DNA of 64,000 nucleotides from assembly GCA_016180435.1 (NCBI GenBank), contig JACPBG010000001.1, positions 216,006 to 280,005 of the forward strand, given 5' to 3'. Below are positions 3,650 through 39,760 of the stretch, in pieces (within the stretch, counting starts at the first letter, position 1; the number at the start of each line of letters is the position of its first letter). The notes below the pieces were generated by a model. That model saw only the letters and a program-made list of their open reading frames with translations, was not told the origin of the DNA and made no database searches. The DNA is from Candidatus Sungiibacteriota bacterium (GTDB lineage Bacteria > Patescibacteriota > Minisyncoccia > Sungbacterales > HO2-52-23). The position numbers were made by a program, and so were the translations under genes.

Positions 3650-3650
3650 A

Positions 3651-3797
3651 ATTATTCTAATTGTTCTAATTAACCTAATTGTTCTAATCAATGACCATAA
3701 AAAATGTCTAATGACCAAAACTATTTTAGATATTTAGACATTCGCAAAATTGGGATTTAATTAGGTAAATTAGAATAATTAGGTTAATTAGAATAAT
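3651..3797. repeat. AT-rich palindromic intergenic element E1 built from TTCTAAT / ATTAGAA heptamer arrays
   Basis: Left half attattctaattgttctaattaacctaattgttctaat; right half aattaggtaaattagaataattaggttaattagaataatt is its inverted counterpart; near-identical copy at 5158-5299. Confidence 0.8.
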
Positions 3798-3806
3798 TTT
3801 TATTTC

Positions 3807-4433
3807 TTGTACCCAGCGCCTATTCAAAAATTAATTGACCTGTTCACCAAATTTCCCGGCATTGGTCCCCGACAAGCCACTCGCTTTGTTTTTTTTATGC
3901 TGAAAAATCGTGCCCTTATACCCGATTTGCGGCAGGGATTGGCGGATTTGGATAGAAAAATCGCTTTTTGCCCGCTATGCTATCGGGCGCTTGAACAAAA
4001 TGGCGAAAAAGGCGCGTACTGTATGCTATGCCGCGACACCAAACGGAATAGCCGACAAATCGCCGTGGTGGAAAAAGAAGCGGATTTGCAAAATTTAGAA
4101 AAAACCGGATCATATTCCGGCCTTTATCATGTCTTAAGCGGACTCATTGCGCCGCTTGATCCAAATTCTCCAAAGGGTTTGCATTTAAAAGAATTGCACG
4201 AGCGGGTCAATAATCTACTGGAAAAAGAGAGGAAATGTGAGATTATTTTGGCAACCGGAACCACAACCGAAGGCGACATGACCGCGCTTTATATTGAACG
4301 AATCCTAGCGCCTTTGAAAAACAAATTTCCGGAACTTAAAATCTCGCGCCTAGGCCGAGGACTCTCACTCGGCTCCGAACTTGAATATGCGGATGAAGTA
4401 ACCCTGAAAAACGCCTTAACGAACAGGAAATGA
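3807..4433 (+). CDS. recR: Recombination protein RecR
   Basis: 208 aa; HhH N-terminus (FPGIGPRQATR), C4 zinc finger CPLC...CMLC, Toprim region. Confidence 0.9.
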   Translation: MYPAPIQKLIDLFTKFPGIGPRQATRFVFFMLKNRALIPDLRQGLADLDRKIAFCPLCYRALEQNGEKGAYCMLCRDTKRNSRQIAVVEKEADLQNLEKTGSYSGLYHVLSGLIAPLDPNSPKGLHLKELHERVNNLLEKERKCEIILATGTTTEGDMTALYIERILAPLKNKFPELKISRLGRGLSLGSELEYADEVTLKNALTNRK

Positions 4434-4482: not shown

Positions 4483-5157
4483 CTATCCGTACACCGGGGA
4501 CTCGCGGTAAATACAGTACTCGCAATTTTGATGGGCTTTGGGAATCGGGCCGGTAACGATTTCGCGGACTCTTTTTAAAACCGAGATGCCACGCGATGGA
4601 GAAACATCCATTTTGATAAGTTCGGTCTTAAAATCCGCCGCACCCATGCCGTATGACGTTGGCCAGAAAAATAATAAATATCCGTATTCTGCCGGAGGCA
4701 TTTTATTTTCGCGGAAAAGCAAAGCATATAAATCAAGCTGGGTGCGGTAATGTTCATGCGTATCCTCTTTGGTCGGATAACCGCGGGTTTTGAAATCAAA
4801 CGGCACAAACTTTCCGTCAGGCGCAATTAACAAATCGTCAATCGCGCCGCGAAGCACAATATCAAGGTCCGGAAATTTTGCCCCAAGACCCCCGCGGCCA
4901 AAATCTACTTCACGCCATTTATTAAATTCGGCCAAATTTTCATTATAAAGCCGGCCATCCGCTTTTCCATCAATCTCCGGAGGCAATTCGCCGCGTTTCC
5001 GATATTCGTCAAAATATTTTTTGAAAACATTATCCATTCCGTCCGGAAGCGACGGATAGGCGCCGCGCGGGCGCTTTTTATTTTCATTCATCTGCAGCCA
5101 AAGACAGCGCGGACATTCCAATAAATAACTTGTACCGGATGGAGAAACTTTAATCAC
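4483..5157 (-). CDS. Cas4/RecB-family PD-(D/E)xK nuclease with putative Fe-S cysteines (stand-alone)
   Basis: Motifs IDDLLIAPDGKFVPFDFK (D..D/ExK), QLDLYALL (QxxxY), Cys pairs CPRC (N-term) and CEYC (C-term). Start uncertain: track start at 5199 is TTG inside repeat E2; GTG at 5157 or ATG at 5091 are alternatives. Confidence 0.55.
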   Translation of the reverse strand: MIKVSPSGTSYLLECPRCLWLQMNENKKRPRGAYPSLPDGMDNVFKKYFDEYRKRGELPPEIDGKADGRLYNENLAEFNKWREVDFGRGGLGAKFPDLDIVLRGAIDDLLIAPDGKFVPFDFKTRGYPTKEDTHEHYRTQLDLYALLFRENKMPPAEYGYLLFFWPTSYGMGAADFKTELIKMDVSPSRGISVLKRVREIVTGPIPKAHQNCEYCIYRESPVYG

Positions 5158-5299
5158 AATTATTCTAATTACTCTAATTGCTCTAATTATTCTAATCAAA
5201 TCCTAATGACAAAATGTCTAAAAACTTTAGGAAATAGGCATTCAAATCATTGAGGTTTTTTAGGTTAATTAGGTCAATTAGAATAATTAGGTTAATTTA
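5158..5299. repeat. AT-rich palindromic intergenic element E2 (second copy of E1 family)
   Basis: aattattctaattactctaattgctctaattattctaatc ... aatgtctaa ... ttaggttaattaggtcaattagaataattaggttaatt; collinear with E1 at 3651-3797. Confidence 0.8.
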
Positions 5300-12759: not shown

Positions 12760-12915
12760 AAAACTCACAAAGCACAGAAACCAAGACATAAACAAGCACT
12801 AAAATTCAAAATTCACCTAATTTCTAAGGCCTGAATTTTTAATTTCTTTATTTGGTATTTTATTAGAAATTAGACAATTAGGTAATTAGAAATTTATCTT
12901 AATGGGTTTTGTGCA
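12760..12915. repeat. Repeated ~150-bp leader/element E4 upstream of metK (homologous to 39476-39760 minus its inserted small element)
   Basis: acagaaacca..actaaaattcaaaattcacctaatttctaaggcctga..taatttctttatttggtattttattagaaattagacaattaggtaattagaaatt..gggttttgtgc shared almost verbatim with the region upstream of neuB. Confidence 0.75.
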
Positions 12916-19966: not shown

Positions 19967-20989
19967 ATGACAGCGAACTCCGCTGTAGAATGGAGAATTT
20001 TTATGTCAGAAGTGATGCTGCAGGTTCAACCCCGGCCGGAAGATATTCCGATGTTAAAGACCGACAGAAGTTTAGTCTGCCTAATTGATGCAAGCGGGCA
20101 TGTGCTTGCAAAACGCCTCGACAAAGAGAGCAGGAGGCGAGATATAGAAATAGAAATCTTTGCCCCCTTTACCTCGGCCATACTTGTACGCGGAATAGTA
20201 CAAGGCAGTGTTGTAGAATCTCTGCTTGAAAACGTCACAGAAATTGGAGAGAACCCAGCGACTTCACTAACCTCTCTCATCGTTCTCACCAAAAGACAGC
20301 GGGAGCGAATCAATGAAATTCTTGCGAGCTTAGACCGCGGTAAATTTCCGCTCAACACGCTTCATATCAAACAAACCTCGGAGTTGAATCAATATCAAAG
20401 ACGAACCGAGTTCTTTACAACAAAACCGCGCATAAAAATACCTGACTGCGACCGTACGGTAGAACTCAATTGGTTCACAGATCGTGATGCAGAGCTAAAA
20501 ACCAAACTCCTTGGCGCAAAAATAAAATACGAATGGCATGAGGGATCTTTTAAGATTGAGGACGTGCCTGATCATGACATATTATTGTCATATCGGGATA
20601 ACCAAAAACGGCCATTCTCGTATTATCCTTCAATGTTTAATGCAGGATTAATGAGTACTTACCGGTGGTATGAATCAGAAGATGCGGTTAATTCTGGCTT
20701 CCCATATATTCTGCCTTATGCCGTGGAGCCGCGGGATCGTTCGTTTGACATGCCAAAAACCGACGCATACAAACGAGGTATTATCCCCGCTACTCTGCGA
20801 GTGCTCTATGGCGAGTACGAACTCTTTGAGTATTTTGAGATAGATGATGCGCTGTTATTTCTTGAAGAGAAACGCGTAAACGCGTCCGGATCAGAACTAT
20901 ACTGGCACCTTGTCGTAATCTATAATTCGGAACTTCGGGAGAAAATTTCACGGGTTATATCAAATAACCGGCTATACGTAAAAAGATAA
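19967..20989 (+). CDS. Hypothetical protein (no recognisable domain)
   Basis: 340 aa ORF with own sigma70-like promoter (TTGACC-N17-TATAAA near 19845-19875) and terminator (20993-21014). Confidence 0.45.
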   Translation: MTANSAVEWRIFMSEVMLQVQPRPEDIPMLKTDRSLVCLIDASGHVLAKRLDKESRRRDIEIEIFAPFTSAILVRGIVQGSVVESLLENVTEIGENPATSLTSLIVLTKRQRERINEILASLDRGKFPLNTLHIKQTSELNQYQRRTEFFTTKPRIKIPDCDRTVELNWFTDRDAELKTKLLGAKIKYEWHEGSFKIEDVPDHDILLSYRDNQKRPFSYYPSMFNAGLMSTYRWYESEDAVNSGFPYILPYAVEPRDRSFDMPKTDAYKRGIIPATLRVLYGEYELFEYFEIDDALLFLEEKRVNASGSELYWHLVVIYNSELREKISRVISNNRLYVKR

Positions 20990-21041: not shown

Positions 21042-21081
21042 TTGTATCTAATTTTACGCTTAAGCGTAAAATTAGATACAA
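21042..21081. repeat. 40-bp perfect palindrome TTGTATCTAATTTTACGCTTAAGCGTAAAATTAGATACAA
   Basis: 19-bp perfect arms around a central TTAA (contains CTTAAG); lies between convergent genes but lacks a T-tract. Confidence 0.85.
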
Positions 21082-21174: not shown

Positions 21175-21777
21175 CTATGACTGAATCGCAGGGGAAACGG
21201 CGCCACTCAGCATTCCGGATTGATCTTCGTAATCGGCAAACACGGCGGCGGCAAAGACCGTGGTCCATAGGCCGTCTTTATTACCAATAGCGGATTGAGT
21301 GATATTGGAAGTGCGTACGATTTTCTCGGACATTTTAAAAATTTGTTCCCTCTCATCCCAGGCGGTATCGGAATCAAATTCAATGCCCAAAGTGGTTGCC
21401 AACATGCTGGCAGCCAAATCCTCGGCATAATCCCCGGCTTTTTCTTCGGTCTCGCCAAAAGAATGATGCTCGGAAAGATAGCCGTGCTGATCCGGGTCCG
21501 CCGGAATCGCACAACCGACCGACGCGGCAACCAGGCGATTGGGCTCATTGCTTGATTCACGGTCATACACGCAAAAAACGATTTCCCCGGGTTTTAAAAG
21601 TTTCAATCCTTCTTCTTTGGAAACGCGCTTGGCTCCGGGCGGATAAATGCTGGAAACCAAAACCAAATTACAATACGCGATACCCGCATCGCGAAGCGCC
21701 AACTCAAAAGAAGCGAGCTTTTCTTTATGCACGCCCACGCCTTTGGTGAAAAATATTTTGGTGGGAACTAAGTTCAA
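21175..21777 (-). CDS. pdaD: Pyruvoyl-dependent arginine decarboxylase (PdaD family)
   Basis: 200 aa; N-terminal [37 protein letters not shown]; the NLVxVSSIxPP segment matches the PdaD Ser-Ser self-cleavage site. Confidence 0.65.
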
Positions 21778-28132: not shown

Positions 28133-29513
28133 CCGCATCAAAATCACGCTTCTTATTTTAGGGGACTTTCTAACACTCTGGGGAACCCTAATTTTGATTT
28201 TGTTTCTCCGCTATCACGCCGATCAAGATTTCGATCTACAAAAAATGTTTCAAATCCATGTAGCGCCTTTTACTCTCGTATTTGCCGCCTGGCTCGTACT
28301 TTTCGGCGCTTTTGGATTATACGACATACGGACGCTCGGCCTCGTTACCATACGGGATGCGCGGAGGCTTTTATTAAGAATGACGGAAGCAATGGCGTTT
28401 AATACGGCCTCGGCCATTATCATTTTTTATTTGATTCCGGCATTTGAAATCGAACCGCGCCGCAATTTATTCTTGGTGGTTTTGGGATCATTATTCTTCA
28501 TCTTTACATGGCGCTGCCTTATTAATCTTTTCATAACCAAAGCCAAGCCCTTACCGATCGCATTTTTTGGCATTAACAAAGAAGTGGTGGAGCTTGCGGA
28601 TTGGCTCCTGAAAAATCCGCAGCTCGGAAGAAAGCCGGCCGCATTCATATCCGCAAACAGCGAGGACACCCTGCGTCCCCTGCCCCTTCCCGTGTTCACC
28701 CACACCCAAGACATGCAGCATCTAGCGCGCGATTTGGCGCTGGATGCCATAATCATTACCCGCGAGATCAAAGAGAATAAAACACTGACGCGCGCTCTTT
28801 TTCAAATGATACCGCTGGGCGTAGGCATTACGGAATTTACGGCATTCCACGAAATGCTCACCGGAAAAATCCCTTTATCACTCATAGGGGAAGTGTGGTT
28901 TTTGGAAAATCTGGCTGGCAGCCAAAAAGACATATATGAATTTTTCAAACGCGTGCTTGATATCGGACTTGCCATACTTCTGGGCATTCCATTTTTAGTC
29001 CTTTTACCTTTAACTGCAATTTTTATCAAAATCAATTCGCCGGGTAGAATATTCTTCCGGCAAAAACGGGTGGGTAAAAATGGAAAGGAGTTTTTTCTGA
29101 TAAAATTCCGTTCTATGGTGCAGACTGCCGAAAAACTTGGCGGATTTAAAAATGAATCCGAAGACCGCCGCCATACCGGCGTAGGAAAATTTTTAAGAAA
29201 AATATATATTGACGAATTGCCACAAATAATAAATGTTTTGCGCGGTGAAATGTCATTTATCGGACCGCGGCCGGAGCGGCCCGAATATGTCCGCGAACTA
29301 AAAGAAAAAATTCCGTTTTACGAAATGCGACTTTTAGTTCCGCCCGGCATCACCGGCTGGGCGCAAATTAATATGGAGAATGACGCATCCGTGGAGGATG
29401 CGCCGGAAAAAATGCAGTATGATCTTTATTACATCAAAAATCGTTCATTCCTGCTGGATATTCTAGTGGCGCTCCGCACAATTTTTATCATTCTCCGCCG
29501 CCCTGGAAGATAG
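28122..29513 (+). CDS. Polyprenyl-phosphate sugar phosphotransferase (WbaP/PssY-like initiating transferase)
   Basis: 463 aa; N-terminal TM helices, C-terminal Bac_transf domain (KFRSM, DELPQIINVLRGEMSFIGPRPERP, PGITGWAQIN). Confidence 0.85.
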   Translation: MATNRIKITLLILGDFLTLWGTLILILFLRYHADQDFDLQKMFQIHVAPFTLVFAAWLVLFGAFGLYDIRTLGLVTIRDARRLLLRMTEAMAFNTASAIIIFYLIPAFEIEPRRNLFLVVLGSLFFIFTWRCLINLFITKAKPLPIAFFGINKEVVELADWLLKNPQLGRKPAAFISANSEDTLRPLPLPVFTHTQDMQHLARDLALDAIIITREIKENKTLTRALFQMIPLGVGITEFTAFHEMLTGKIPLSLIGEVWFLENLAGSQKDIYEFFKRVLDIGLAILLGIPFLVLLPLTAIFIKINSPGRIFFRQKRVGKNGKEFFLIKFRSMVQTAEKLGGFKNESEDRRHTGVGKFLRKIYIDELPQIINVLRGEMSFIGPRPERPEYVRELKEKIPFYEMRLLVPPGITGWAQINMENDASVEDAPEKMQYDLYYIKNRSFLLDILVALRTIFIILRRPGR

Positions 29514-29576
29514 TTTGACATCTTAATACCAATATGATACCGTAACTTGAGACCCTTAAGTTAGCGGAGTGAAAAA

Positions 29577-29981
29577 ATGGCTTTTAGTATGCAGCGCCTT
29601 GTCCCGGCAAATGAAACTAAAAAGGGGAAGCGCACATGGAATTGGAACATGCCGGACGGAAAACAAATAACGATTTATCAGAGATATCGGGACGAGGAAT
29701 TCGGAAATCACTTCCATAAAGGAGGGGACCCTTCAAAAAATCCGGAAAGGTTTCTCCTTCTTAACGGGATAGTTTATTTTTGGCTCGAAGATAAAAACGG
29801 CCACAGATATACTATGGTACTAGACGCAACCGATGGACCGGTGGAAATCATGATACGACCGTATATTCTCCACGGCGCCCGGGCGCTGGCAGATTGTTGC
29901 TTTATCGAATACCGGCAGAGCAAATTTGATCCGGCACATACAGATACATATCCGGAAGAAATCTTTCGGGAAACACATTAA
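29577..29981 (+). CDS. Cupin-fold protein, WxcM/FdtA-like (sugar ketoisomerase-like)
   Basis: 134 aa; GNHFHKGG metal-binding-like motif, similar to cupins at 44349-44810 and 57212-57604. Confidence 0.5.
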   Translation: MAFSMQRLVPANETKKGKRTWNWNMPDGKQITIYQRYRDEEFGNHFHKGGDPSKNPERFLLLNGIVYFWLEDKNGHRYTMVLDATDGPVEIMIRPYILHGARALADCCFIEYRQSKFDPAHTDTYPEEIFRETH

Positions 29982-30007
29982 AAGAACGCCTGCGCGTTCT
30001 TTTTTTA
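29982..30007 (+). terminator. Rho-independent terminator
   Basis: aagaacgcctgcgcgttctt followed by ttttttt. Confidence 0.7.
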
Positions 30008-30106
30008 ATTTGGATGACCTCTCGTTAAATATTATGGGATAATGGTAAAAATGGGGGGCTAAATATGTTAGTATAAATGATACTTATCAACTAATTTATG
30101 TAAAAG

Positions 30107-30502
30107 TTACAATGGTCTACAAAAAACGGCAAAATTTGCCCTTCCTGCGGCAGAAAAAATGCAAAAAAGAACGGATATTCACGCGGCAAGCAGCAATATA
30201 AATGCTTAAAGTGCAATAAGAAGTTTTCCGGTCAAAGACGACGCGGTATTTTACAAAGTATTCTTTGGCAGCAATACGCCCATGATTATTGCACAGTAGA
30301 TCAACTGACCCGCAAGTATCACCGAAGCGAAAAGTGGATCCGATCTCAACTGGATGCATACCGATTCCCGGAACATAAGATGGCGCCGCGTCCGGTCGTG
30401 ATCGTGGCTGACGCCATGTTCTTTGGAAGACACTGGGGAGTGGTAGTAATGCGCGCTCCGCACAATTTTCATCATTCTCCGCCGCCCTGGAAGATAGGAT
30501 AA
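30107..30502 (+). pseudogene. Zinc-ribbon transposase remnant (IS1/IS1595-type N-terminus; truncated, no ATG start)
   Basis: Frame encodes KNGKICPSCGRKNAKKNGYSRGKQQYKCLKCNKKFS (CxxC-N17-CxxC ribbon) then ...PRPVVIVADAMFFGRHWGVVV resembling the start of a DDE domain; ORF ends inside the duplicated 45-bp segment. Confidence 0.45.
30453..30497. repeat. 45-bp direct duplicate (44/45 identical) of the 3' end of the sugar-transferase gene (copy 1 at 29469-29513)
   Basis: gcgctccgcacaattttcatcattctccgccgccctggaagatag vs gcgctccgcacaatttttatcattctccgccgccctggaagatag; encodes ALRTIFIILRRPGR* in both places. Confidence 0.9.
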
Positions 30503-30548: not shown

Positions 30549-30586
30549 TACTCTGATATGTATACGATCGAAATAATATCAGAGTA
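30549..30586. promoter_or_regulatory. 38-bp palindromic site TACTCTGATAT-N16-ATATCAGAGTA (copy A, downstream of PaaX-like gene)
   Basis: tactctgatatgtatacgatcgaaataatatcagagta; second copy at 31284-31321. Confidence 0.6.
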
Positions 30587-30638
30587 AATCTGAATATCCG
30601 CCGCAGAACCATACAGAAAAATAAGATAGATAATACAT

Positions 30639-31232
30639 TTAAATTTCGTGAATGGTCCCGCGCTTATTTACCGAAAAAATATGAACGTGCGGTAGTAACT
30701 TTCTTTCCCGAATTGCATGAATAAAATCCTCGTCTATGGCATTGCCGCGGCTAACCCAAACGCTTTTTTGCAACAATTTAAATTCCATTTCTCGAAGACA
30801 AGCACGAACCCAATCACGAGCCCTGCGCTCTTTTTCGGGGATGTCAAATGCAACAATTATCAAACCGCTCCCCGTCGGAGGATCAAGTGAAACGGAAAAT
30901 TTTGAAAAATTATTCTGGGAGCGATCACGGATATACCTTAATCGTTCAATGCCACGTTTAGTAATATTCCAAAATGACGACTTTCCTTTTTCTTTTTTTA
31001 CCACCAATCCCTCATGTTGCAAATAATTGAGGGTGTTGTAAAATTGACGATGTTTCCTATAGATATCGGCCCAATCAGTTTTGAACTGGCGCGGACCTTG
31101 AGATAAGAATCTCCGATAATCGCGACGTGCCTCAGATTTAGACATAAAAAAGGATTTAAATAAATCAACGGTCACTTCCGCCTCGAATTGAAGTAATTCT
31201 AGAATTTTTTCGACAAACGTTTCGCGCTTCAT
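30639..31232 (-). CDS. PaaX-family-like transcriptional regulator: N-terminal winged HTH + C-terminal Cas2-like domain
   Basis: 197 aa; C-terminal LIIVAFDIPEKERRARDWVRACLREMEFKLLQKSVWV parallels Cas2 N-terminal beta-alpha-beta (lVlVsYDIsdd.rRrkvaklL..yGqRVQySVF) and the PaaX middle domain. Confidence 0.55.
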   Translation of the reverse strand: MKRETFVEKILELLQFEAEVTVDLFKSFFMSKSEARRDYRRFLSQGPRQFKTDWADIYRKHRQFYNTLNYLQHEGLVVKKEKGKSSFWNITKRGIERLRYIRDRSQNNFSKFSVSLDPPTGSGLIIVAFDIPEKERRARDWVRACLREMEFKLLQKSVWVSRGNAIDEDFIHAIRERKLLPHVHIFSVNKRGTIHEI

Positions 31233-31283
31233 TTAAATATATTCAGTGGCCAAAAACCGCGTTCCAGCCCGCAAAAATTTATA

Positions 31284-31321
31284 TACTCTGATATTTATAC
31301 GATCGTATTTATATCAGAGTA
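31284..31321. promoter_or_regulatory. 38-bp near-perfect palindrome (copy B) ~50 bp upstream of PaaX-like gene; putative operator
   Basis: tactctgatatttatacgatcgtatttatatcagagta (34/38 self-complementary). Confidence 0.6.
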
Positions 31322-31382: not shown

Positions 31383-32294
31383 TCAAAAAATATGCAACAG
31401 AGTTTTCAACTCATTTATTCCGTCAACAAAAGATATTTTTGGTTCCCAGCCGAGAAGTTCTTTGGCTTTCTTGATATCGGCCAAAGTTTCTAATACTTCG
31501 CCCTGGCGCGATTCGATAAATTTCCACGGCCCGCCGATCATCTCGGCGATTTCAAGAACACTGTAGTTCGTTGCCGTACCGATATTTACTATTTCTCCTT
31601 TGCCTACTTGACCGGATTTCATGGCAAGCAAATTGGCGCGCGCCACATCCGTAACGTGCGTAAAATCCCTACGCTGGGTCCCATCCGGCACCACACTCAT
31701 TGGCGTACTATTCGCACGTTGCTCTAAAAAAATTCCAATTACAGTTGCATATGGTCCGTCGGAAGCAGTGGTTTGCCGAGGCCCATAAACATTAAAATAA
31801 CGCAAAGAAACTGTTTCTAGGCCATAAAAACGCGCGGCCATTTCGCAATATTGCTCCCCCACTCTTTTCTGAATCGCGTAAGGAATAATGGGCTCCGGAC
31901 GCATGTCCTCCGTAAGAGGCATCACATCTTTTCTGCCGTACGCGGAGGAAGACGCGGAATACACCACTCTTTTGACTCCCGCATCGCGCGCCGCCAAAAG
32001 AACATTCAACGTTCCAGTAATATTGATATCATTGGTAAGCCGCGGCTCTTTCAGGGAATATTGCATTCGGGGTTGCGCCGCAGTATGGAAAATTCCCGCT
32101 GCACCCTTGAAAACCGGCGCAAGTTTGTCAAAATCGCGGATATCCATCTCATGAAGGATGGCCTTAGGATTTAGCCGCTCGCGCTTGCCGGTCAAAAAAT
32201 TATCAATAACATGCACTTCGTCGCCGCGCGCAATCAGCATATCCACAATATGGGAGCCGATAAAACCAGCCCCGCCGGTTACAATAAATTTCAT
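31383..32294 (-). CDS. NAD-dependent nucleotide-sugar epimerase/dehydratase (extended SDR)
   Basis: 303 aa; TGGAGFIGSH Rossmann motif, YxxxK (YAIQK). Confidence 0.85.
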   Translation of the reverse strand: MKFIVTGGAGFIGSHIVDMLIARGDEVHVIDNFLTGKRERLNPKAILHEMDIRDFDKLAPVFKGAAGIFHTAAQPRMQYSLKEPRLTNDINITGTLNVLLAARDAGVKRVVYSASSSAYGRKDVMPLTEDMRPEPIIPYAIQKRVGEQYCEMAARFYGLETVSLRYFNVYGPRQTTASDGPYATVIGIFLEQRANSTPMSVVPDGTQRRDFTHVTDVARANLLAMKSGQVGKGEIVNIGTATNYSVLEIAEMIGGPWKFIESRQGEVLETLADIKKAKELLGWEPKISFVDGINELKTLLHIF

Positions 32295-32326
32295 TAGGAA
32301 TTAGGAATTAGGAATTAGGAATTAGT
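32294..32326. repeat. Tandem heptamer array (AATTAGG)x4.5 abutting the epimerase start codon
   Basis: attaggaattaggaattaggaattaggaattag; on the coding strand (CTAATTC)n runs directly into ATG with no Shine-Dalgarno. Confidence 0.85.
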
Positions 32327-39475: not shown

Positions 39476-39760
39476 CTAAAACTCACAAAACACAGAAACC
39501 AGAACTAAAATTCAAAATTCACCTAATCTCTAATTTACCCCGTTAGAAATAAACAAATATAGTAGCATCTGCAACTCGTTTTTATCGGTAAAAATAGATA
39601 ATTTCCGCACTAAAAACATCTTCTGTTTCTTTCTAACGGGGTGAACCTAATAAAATTTCTAAGGCCTAAGTTCTTAATTTCTTTATTGGACATTTTATTA
39701 GAAATTAGACAATTAGGTAATTAGAAATTGAGGCCGCTATTTGGGTTTTGTGCGTTTATT
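39476..39760. repeat. Copy E5 of the ~150-bp leader element (see 12760-12915) upstream of neuB, interrupted by a small TIR element
   Basis: acagaaaccagaactaaaattcaaaattcacctaat...[insert 39537-39642]...tttctaaggcctaagttcttaatttctttattggacattttattagaaattagacaattaggtaattagaaatt...gggttttgtgcg. Confidence 0.75.
39537..39642. mobile_element. Small TIR-bounded element copy c: ACCCCGTTAGAAA ... TTTCTAACGGGGT
   Basis: 13-bp perfect terminal inverted repeats; inserted within the repeated leader element relative to the uninterrupted copy upstream of metK. Confidence 0.7.

Follow-up and report, generated by a model that had tools for sequence, protein, structure and literature searches.

A shortened PaaX-like protein gene bracketed by palindromes in Patescibacteria, probably a self-repressing switch

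The window, a stretch of 64 kb from a Candidatus Sungiibacteriota contig, contains a gene (hereafter X) for a small protein in which a winged helix is joined to a Cas2-like domain and which lies between two palindromes of 38 bp. Is such a gene a regulator, a part of a CRISPR system or a mobile element, and what are the palindromes for? The question has a wider bearing, since Patescibacteria (CPR) have tiny genomes with very few recognisable regulators, and the control of their transcription is almost wholly obscure. The gene and its palindromes had been described in a sequence-only reading of the window, and every detail of that description was confirmed, with measured spacings of 51 and 52 nt (Table 1). 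Both palindromes have the form TACTCTGATAT-N16-ATATCAGAGTA. Chance was ruled out as their origin: no match appeared in 100 shuffles, and the sites recurred at 41 of 48 homolog loci. Because the same layout is found at most sampled Patescibacteria relatives, a self-repressing switch is the most likely role, rather than a CRISPR part or a mobile element. We consider it moderately probable that X is a dimeric autorepressor of a minimal PaaX type, whose two operators bracket its gene and which has a small set of further targets. New here is the comparative result, i.e., the bracketing palindromes as a family-wide unit of a large unannotated family. Our literature search found no description of the X subfamily and its bracketing sites, and no paper tying PaaX, PaaX_M or a Cas2-like winged-helix protein to Patescibacteria.

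Table 1. Features of the X locus, in positions of the window.
Feature	Position	Strand	Remarks
X, mini-PaaX protein gene, 197 aa	30639..31232	-	ORF list; stop codon counted in; Pfam matches; homologs
Segment within X gene	30915..31232	-	
Cas2-like (PaaX_M) domain coding region, residues 123-197	30642..30866	-	
Upstream 38-bp palindrome, proposed primary operator	31284..31321	.	36-bp core 31285-31320, 16/18 symmetric; 51 nt before ATG
Downstream 38-bp palindrome, proposed second operator (loop/roadblock)	30549..30586	.	Core 30550-30585, 14/18 symmetric; 52 nt past stop
Terminator-like hairpin followed by TTTTT, between upstream palindrome and ATG	31257..31274	-	Consensus scan alone
TATATT following TGAA, 3 nt ahead of ATG; possible -10 hexamer	31236..31241	-	Read off sequence

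In Pfam, residues 126–193 of X matched PaaX_M (PF20803, ‘PaaX central Cas2-like domain’) with an E-value of 6.2e-13 (49.1 bits, cut-off 24), and residues 124–163, the stretch that the sequence-only reading had singled out, matched positions 2–38 of the CRISPR_Cas2 profile (3.8e-5; 24.2 bits, cut-off 23.8). The NCBIfam model TIGR01573 (cas2) reached 21.4 bits, under its cut-off of 24.5. Several Cas2 models of PADLOC matched at 6e-5 to 1e-3; overall, PHROGs and PADLOC returned only weak Cas2 and winged-helix matches for X. The N-terminus is a winged-helix DNA-binding domain, a feature of the PaaX family, with weak sequence matches to the MarR family, whereas Pfam's model for the N-terminal domain of PaaX was not matched. 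Pfam gave no match to PaaX_C, the helical effector-binding domain, and X stops 4 residues past its Cas2-like domain. No HUH/Y1, other transposase, recombinase or integrase domain was revealed in X by domain profile searches. The earlier call of a winged helix followed by a Cas2-like, PaaX-like region was thus borne out, and the Pfam check that had been proposed for it (PaaX_C, Cas2) placed the C-terminal region in PaaX_M/Cas2. The idea that it is unusual for a regulator to contain a Cas2-like domain was not supported, since Pfam already defines the PaaX middle domain in this way.

The invariant residues of the family were D130, P132, E133, R139, R143 and Q155-x-S157-V158-W159; the Cas2 signature (F129-D130 together with Q155-x-S157-V158-W159) did not vary across 36 aligned sequences. 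D130 falls at about position 8 of the Cas2 profile and is an aspartate at the end of strand 1, like D10 of SSO1404. F129-D130 and W159 of X align with Y9-D10 and F37 of this Cas2, respectively. D10 of SSO1404 is catalytic, binds metal and lies at the dimer interface (PMC3351183). In X, the conserved residues of the Cas2 signature may be structural, although their invariance would also be compatible with a nuclease activity.

PaaX of E. coli (PaaX structures 8a39, 3l09 and 3kfw), the repressor of phenylacetate catabolism, is 316 aa long and carries a C-terminal domain for its effector phenylacetyl-CoA, whereas X has 197 aa and lacks this domain. The sequence similarity between the two is marginal, with only 29 wing residues aligned by hhalign. 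X keeps the QxSVW motif of Cas2, which E. coli PaaX does not have when the two are aligned by eye. PaaX is linked to phenylacetate (paa) catabolism, whereas no paa genes were present among the neighbours of X that we examined. Judging from its sequence, X appears to be a variant of the PaaX kind, a shortened PaaX repressor; it was filed as a variant and not as an ortholog because the effector domain is missing and there is no paa gene context.

A word-indexed search retrieved 36 close relatives of about 195 aa, all metagenomic and all carrying PaaX_M; few had names, and the named ones belonged to Parcubacteria or Patescibacteria. The family is large. An HMM search of 1.84 billion cluster representatives recovered 701 clusters (50% identity) at E<=1e-30 and 2156 at E<=1e-10, most of them unnamed or uninformatively named. 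Nearly all of the best 150 matches were 185–215 aa long, and the longer members showed no informative domain fusions. Scanning of species-representative genomes yielded 46 X loci (designated below by L numbers). Those with clear labels were Patescibacteria (Paceibacteria, Wolfe-, Lipton-, Sungi- and Nomurabacteria, Minisyncoccia); some metagenome-assembled genomes with X were tagged just ‘bacterium’ or ‘uncultured Candidatus Saccharibacteria’, and L051, labelled Gammaproteobacteria, was the weakest match (E 1e-4). Several genomes contained two or three paralogs.

The Cas2 matches could also mean that X is a solo remnant of a CRISPR adaptation module, or a toxin of the VapD/Cas2 kind fused to an autoregulatory DNA-binding domain. 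One of the relatives bears the source-database name ‘CRISPR-associated endonuclease Cas2’, the Pfam Cas2 match lies just over the cut-off, and the PADLOC matches point the same way. Against this, PaaX_M far outscores Cas2, and TIGR01573 stays under its cut-off. X differs from Cas2 and VapD in its fusion to a winged helix. No regularly spaced CRISPR-like repeat array was found by the repeat scan of the 64-kb window, as had been noted before, and no cas1 or other cas gene occurred among the called or recurrent neighbours of X; a partner antitoxin gene was likewise not found. Moreover, members of the family are common in very small genomes, each of which has several paralogs. The context essentially excludes both forms of this reading, to which we assign a very small probability.

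The comparative result comes from the palindromes of the relatives. We scanned 48 loci for 36-bp symmetric sites. A site equivalent to the upstream palindrome was present at 44 of them and one equivalent to the downstream palindrome, right past the stop codon (mostly at -11 to +25 nt), at 42 of 47 evaluable loci; 41 of the 48 had a site on each side of the gene. This bracketing persisted at protein identities down to about 26–30%. The centres of paired sites are 527–863 bp apart (median 681), which makes a palindrome-gene-palindrome unit of about 700–750 bp. The distance from the upstream copy to the ATG is 0–94 nt, save for two loci with 166 and 216 nt, and 13 loci cluster at 7–11 nt. Among the half-sites, positions 16–17 (CG) are invariant, and A predominates at positions 15 (82%) and 18 (76%). 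The resulting CG..CG core reads ACGATCGT, and in distant clades ACGGCCGT and CCGGCCGG.

Arm positions 3–8 vary among loci. They are almost never asymmetric and are common to both copies of one locus, and paralogs within one genome have related yet distinct arms (L036/L037/L042, L009/L011, L016/L022). This pattern is as would be expected of a half-site co-evolving with its reader. Similar helix-wing sequences go with similar arms, e.g., YNLLYKLKRDGL with CTATCC, a correspondence seen by eye and confounded by shared ancestry. The arms of the window (ACTCTGATAT) differ from those of L006 (ATACTGAAGT), the same locus with a protein 69% identical, and the arms of L023, L026 and L034, also orthologs at one locus, have diverged. 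The arms thus change while the orthologs keep their position, which means that the protein and its sites co-evolve in place. Palindrome, gene and palindrome thus form a family-wide, co-evolving architecture.

Further copies away from the gene are rare. In 646 kb around the homologs we found seven orphan sites, six of them intergenic, or about one per 90 kb sampled. One is located 128 nt upstream of rplJ, and another precedes an operon that codes for a giant secreted protein containing SNase and LTD domains. A site at position 18606 of L037 matches the palindrome of the L036 paralog at 34 of 36 positions; although the genome is the same, the contig is a different one and the paralog 8 kb away is not L036, which suggests action in trans. 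The search for additional copies that had been proposed from the window did not define a regulon for this particular X: the 64 kb hold none beyond the two, and in the JGI metagenomes a single contig carries a perfect orphan site of the window type, with no X gene on this contig. That orphan site sits between two secreted-protein genes. Because each X gene adjoins two copies of its presumed binding site, targets are predictable genome by genome. Such a ready-made specificity code would make regulon prediction and simple biochemistry (EMSA, DAP-seq) feasible for uncultured organisms, and with hundreds of 50%-identity clusters the family would offer a natural series of presumably orthogonal protein-site pairs.

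The plan of these sites resembles the operator of PaaX. E. coli PaaX recognises the 39-bp site TGATTC-N27-GAATCA and acts as a repressor of its own promoter (PMC9493321). We recovered this sequence at the E. coli paaA promoter. The sites of X are 36–38 bp long and follow the same plan, with two arms whose centres are about 25 bp apart. E. coli paaX differs in not being bracketed by sites, whereas X has them on both sides and with a conserved central core. In L002, L004, L006, L009, L018, L021, L029, L030, L036, L042 and others, the upstream palindrome contains a sigma-70-type promoter facing X, with the -35 element (TTGACG or TTGATA) overlapping the core, a spacer of 16–18 nt and the -10 element at the outer palindrome edge. 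Promoters scoring at least 9 of 12 consensus positions were found in 26 of 98 sites vs. 13.9 in shuffles, and these were mostly upstream copies. Where the ATG comes 7–11 nt past the palindrome, a leaderless X mRNA is implied. From this arrangement, a protein bound at the upstream copy would occlude its own promoter. The earlier view of the palindromes as operator-like was therefore upheld by their recurrence down to about 30% identity, their PaaX-like geometry and the frequent position of the upstream copy on a promoter.

The autorepressor model builds on the domain architecture, on sites that are conserved across the family and have matching arms within each locus, and on the promoters that these sites overlap in relatives; from these we infer binding, dimerisation, repression, and looping or roadblocking. 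The winged helix would read DNA, and the Cas2-like domain would form the dimer, as in PaaX and Cas2. A dimer of X would bind the 36–38-bp palindrome, with its two winged helices contacting the outer arms at about positions 3–8 of each half (ACTCTGATAT in the window) and the conserved core ACGATCGT beneath the dimer axis. X would repress itself because the upstream site overlaps or adjoins its own promoter. The downstream site would be a second operator, which either loops to the first or acts as a roadblock that insulates the small transcription unit from its neighbours, and a small regulon would be formed by a few additional cognate sites in other parts of the genome. All this would proceed with no effector-binding C-terminal domain in the protein. 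As a minimal version of the PaaX fold, X may also be useful for learning how a Cas2-like dimer places winged helices about 25 bp apart.

In having a winged-helix protein, presumably dimeric, and a palindromic operator at its own promoter, X resembles MarR-type and other small winged-helix autorepressors. Two operators hundreds of base pairs apart are classic for looping repressors (lac, gal, deo). X differs from all of these by its putative dimerisation module of the Cas2 fold, by a much longer operator (36 bp, arms about 25 bp apart) and by a second operator placed systematically just past the stop codon, at an inter-site distance without helical phasing. No such phasing was detected between paired sites, a looping test that is uninformative at about 680 bp.

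For the window's own copy, promoter occlusion is the weakest link of the autorepressor model. It is not evident here, because the upstream palindrome is 51 nt from the ATG and separated from it by a terminator-like hairpin, and because the consensus scan placed no promoter inside this palindrome. The hairpin probably ends the transcript of the upstream epimerase gene. The hexamer TATATT is possible as a -10 element and would make the X mRNA leaderless; it was proposed by analogy with relatives having the ATG 7–11 nt past the palindrome and was not reported by the consensus scan. Possible modes of action for X of the window are repression from about position -70, looping, and the roadblocking of read-through from the glycan operon.

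A further reading does without binding by X. The palindromes would be 5' and 3' stem-loops of the mRNA, stabilising or terminating it, and their association with X would be indirect. The stems are strong, the downstream copy abuts the stop codon, where a 3' stem-loop is expected, and 15 of 16 stem pairs change on both sides; this covariation counts for little because the sites were chosen for being palindromic. An RNA hairpin on the sense strand was rejected, since G-T (G-U in RNA) mismatches are about as frequent as A-C ones (41 vs. 45), without strand bias. An intrinsic terminator was rejected as well: on both strands, T-runs precede and A-runs follow the palindrome, the reverse of what a terminator has. 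In addition, the upstream copy is probably untranscribed where the ATG lies 0–11 nt past the palindrome, and a conserved core, locus-specific arms and a strict tie to one protein family are unlike generic stem-loops. A known RNA family was not found either, as Rfam at E<=1 gave just a spurious miRNA match. We regard an origin of the palindromes as transcript structures as improbable.

Several observations are not explained by autorepression. A plain autorepressor has no need of a second site past the stop codon. Yet the downstream copy is conserved to about the same degree as the upstream one. The gene that follows it is co-directional at roughly half of the loci and convergent at the others; since the copy is kept in either orientation, it is not a promoter element for the neighbours. 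A looping or roadblock role is plausible for it. The second feature is the symmetry. Positions 9–14 differ between the copies of one locus, yet they are about 79% symmetric. Comparison of the copies within loci revealed 66 compensated doubles, 36 uncompensated doubles and 101 single differences, whereas a rough estimate for independently drifting arms is fewer than ten compensated doubles. Clean compensated examples are L037, L030 and L018. Symmetry at variable positions is not predicted by base read-out of a symmetric dimer; intrastrand pairing (a cruciform or DNA hairpin) or copying from arm to arm would predict it. In the clade of the window (L002, L004, L006) the effect is weak, and the spacers between arm and core are asymmetric. 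The third feature is L038, in which three copies, identical at 36 of 36 nt, are spread over 6 kb. They look like the result of copying and not of convergent evolution of binding sites.

These features are reminiscent of REP/RAYT systems. RAYT, the REP-associated tyrosine transposase, is encoded by a single-copy gene flanked by cognate REPs; its paralogs go with different palindrome types, and extra copies are intergenic. By analogy, X would be a structure-specific nuclease or DNA-processing protein whose winged helix targets the hairpin or cruciform, and it would maintain, homogenise or occasionally copy its own palindrome. The likeness consists in the cognate palindromes flanking the X gene (41 of 48 loci), a palindrome type for each paralog and the orphan intergenic copies (the seven mentioned above, plus L052). 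The compensated doubles with symmetry held at copy-variable positions, the identical copies of L038, the many sites that are perfect at 18 of 18 positions with DNA hairpins of -17 to -18 kcal/mol (z -7.5 to -11), and the invariant F129-D130 and W159 that match Y9-D10 and F37 of Cas2 add to it. X is, however, unrelated to RAYT, an IS200/IS605-like HUH/Y1 transposase, and is without any such domain or other transposase or recombinase domain. Its palindromes are very few in the available sequence (0 extra in the window and the low density of orphans around the homologs), have a strictly conserved core and often overlap the promoter of the gene. Because arm-core spacers are asymmetric in the window, L002, L004 and L006, hairpin perfection is not required in this clade. 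The closest characterised relative, PaaX, is a repressor, and E. coli PaaX is also acidic at the positions aligned by eye with D130 and E133. The nuclease activity of Cas2 is, besides, generally held dispensable for its known role. On balance, a REP/RAYT-like role of X is unlikely.

The second site past the stop codon and the selection for symmetry nevertheless leave room for an activity that depends on DNA structure. We think it quite unlikely, and still worth stating, that X and its palindromes are a self-contained protein-repeat system, in which a Cas2-fold protein recognises 36-bp repeats as structured DNA and maintains, homogenises or copies them outside CRISPR. If true, this would account for the constant bracketing, the symmetry at variable positions and the identical copies kilobases apart; it would be a REP/RAYT-like system on a Cas2 fold and the first natural link between a Cas1-independent Cas2 homolog and palindromic repeats.

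The palindromes might also be att- or lox-like sites, with arms that serve for binding and the CGATCG/CGGCCG core as the point of crossover or cleavage, so that the unit could be excised or inverted and extra copies would mark other rearrangeable segments. Arms around a conserved central core do resemble recombinase sites, the core is itself a 6-bp palindrome and invariant family-wide, and L018, L026 and L038 have gene blocks flanked by identical sites. X, however, contains neither a tyrosine- or serine-recombinase domain nor an integrase domain, and genes of this kind do not recur next to it. Orthologs are stably syntenic within clades, and no empty site or inverted layout was noticed among related loci in an incidental, unsystematic look. 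The viral and plasmid collections (IMG/VR, GenBank phages, PLSDB) contained no relatives of X. We give this recombination cassette little credence. Carriage by a mobile element was rejected on similar grounds, i.e., the lack of viral, phage and plasmid relatives and the orthologs that keep their locus while the arms diverge (window/L006; L023/L026/L034). The unit is not mobile on the visible timescale, and we found no support for membership in a CRISPR system, phage, plasmid or transposon.

The neighbours of X differ among clades and are stable within them, and no recurrent neighbour family is common across clades. In the window, L006, L007 and L011, an O-antigen-ligase-like gene and the genes for UDP-glucose dehydrogenase and an epimerase are located upstream, and in the window and L006 a sugar transferase gene lies downstream. 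Glycosyltransferase genes and a flippase-like gene are near X in L023, L026 and L034. The gene order is adk, map, X, ruvX in L002 and L004, at the end of a ribosomal-protein cluster, and corA, X, grpE, dnaK in L017, L020, L031 and L032, with a palindrome between X and grpE. In the latter four loci X occupies the place directly upstream of grpE-dnaK where hrcA usually sits; this likeness to HrcA/CIRCE is confined to one clade, and a relation in sequence or fold is not expected. The view of X as a regulator specifically of a glycan island, as in the sequence-only reading, was not supported: other places where homologs occur include the interval from map to ruvX and the region upstream of grpE-dnaK. 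Taken together, the domain call and the operator-like palindromes of that reading were retained, and the unusual Cas2 regulator, the glycan specificity and the mobile-element association were not. As for the last of these, the transposase remnant and the duplicated gene end that it had pointed out next to X were both found. Positions 30100–30500 encode the N-terminal third of an IS256 Zn-type transposase, and the final 45 nt of the sugar-transferase gene are duplicated (29469–29513 = 30453–30497). The remnant and a 134-aa ORF of the window form a separate insertion of 984 bp that is bounded by the 45-bp duplication and is unrelated to X: in L006 this insertion is absent, and the sugar-transferase gene directly follows the downstream palindrome.

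Palindromes of the cognate type were also detected away from genes for the mini-PaaX-type protein (winged helix plus Cas2-like domain). Such orphan sites lay upstream of rplJ and of an operon for a 1552-aa secreted protein carrying SNase and lamin-tail domains. The SNase-LTD gene family of this operon also occurred near the mini-PaaX gene in L023, L026, and L041. Another site, in a 3.1 kb groundwater metagenome contig devoid of the mini-PaaX gene, was flanked on either side by a gene encoding a Thr/Ser-rich secreted protein. Comparison of L004 with L002 and L003 showed that the T5orf172/MUG113-domain gene is an insertion between map and the mini-PaaX gene in the latter two loci.

In one clade (L017, positions 1259-2701; L020, L031, and L032), the mini-PaaX gene was situated directly upstream of grpE-dnaK, the place usually taken by hrcA. 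The palindrome of this clade, CTGTCAAGTATCTCACGATCGTGAGATACTTGACAG, was identical across the four genomes and contained TTGACA within its arms at both ends. The proteins of L017 and L031, the one cross-pair compared, shared only about 30-70% identity along their length.

Codon usage was compared between the window gene and its ortholog in L006. Over the last ~60 codons (window 30639-30820 vs. L006 4420-4602), the same codon was used at ~80% of identical residues, whereas over the first 135 codons it was kept for 30-45% of them. The contrast points to a recent gene conversion or exchange event affecting the Cas2-like half, or to a constraint acting at the nucleotide level. Weaker forms of the contrast were seen in other ortholog pairs.

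Coordinates of the features
Feature	Location	Position or context
Insertion, 984 bp	window 29469-30497	edges formed by a 45-bp duplication of the sugar-transferase gene 3' end
Palindrome GTATCTAATTTTACGCTTAAGCGTAAAATTAGATAC	window 21044-21079	between convergent ORFs 19967-20989 (+) and 21175-21777 (-)
AATTAG(G/A)-type repeat sets	window 3650-3691, 3757-3807, 5149-5199, 5247-5297, 12819-12894, 39654-39729, 32293-32320	
Orphan palindrome	L018 5752-5787	5' of rplJ (ribosomal protein L10)
Orphan palindrome	L038 3973-4008	5' of operon for 1552-aa secreted protein
Perfect palindrome AGTCTGATATTTTAACGATCGTTAAAATATCAGACT, window's type	L052 1972-2007	Hainich groundwater metagenome contig
T5orf172/MUG113-domain gene, GIY-YIG-like	L002 4352-4948	directly 5' of the mini-PaaX gene; likewise in L003

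A further 36-bp palindrome in the window was perfect (18/18 symmetric). Like the palindromes bracketing the mini-PaaX gene, it was preceded by a T-run and followed by an A-run, but its centre was ACG-CTTAAG-CGT instead of ACG-AT-CGT. It may be a site for another regulator.

The 984-bp insertion was missing at the orthologous locus L006. The two copies of its edge duplication (29469-29513 and 30453-30497) matched at 44 of 45 positions. Inside, an ORF of 134 aa at 29577-29981 matched no family, and the stretch at about 30100-30500 encoded the N-terminal third of a transposase of the IS256 Zn type (NF048019, E 2.3e-21).

Several intergenic regions of the window contained short AATTAG(G/A)-type repeats with a period of 7-9 nt. 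The 76-nt copies at 12819 and 39654 were 92% identical, and a set of four ATTAGGA units was found directly upstream of the epimerase gene adjoining the mini-PaaX gene.
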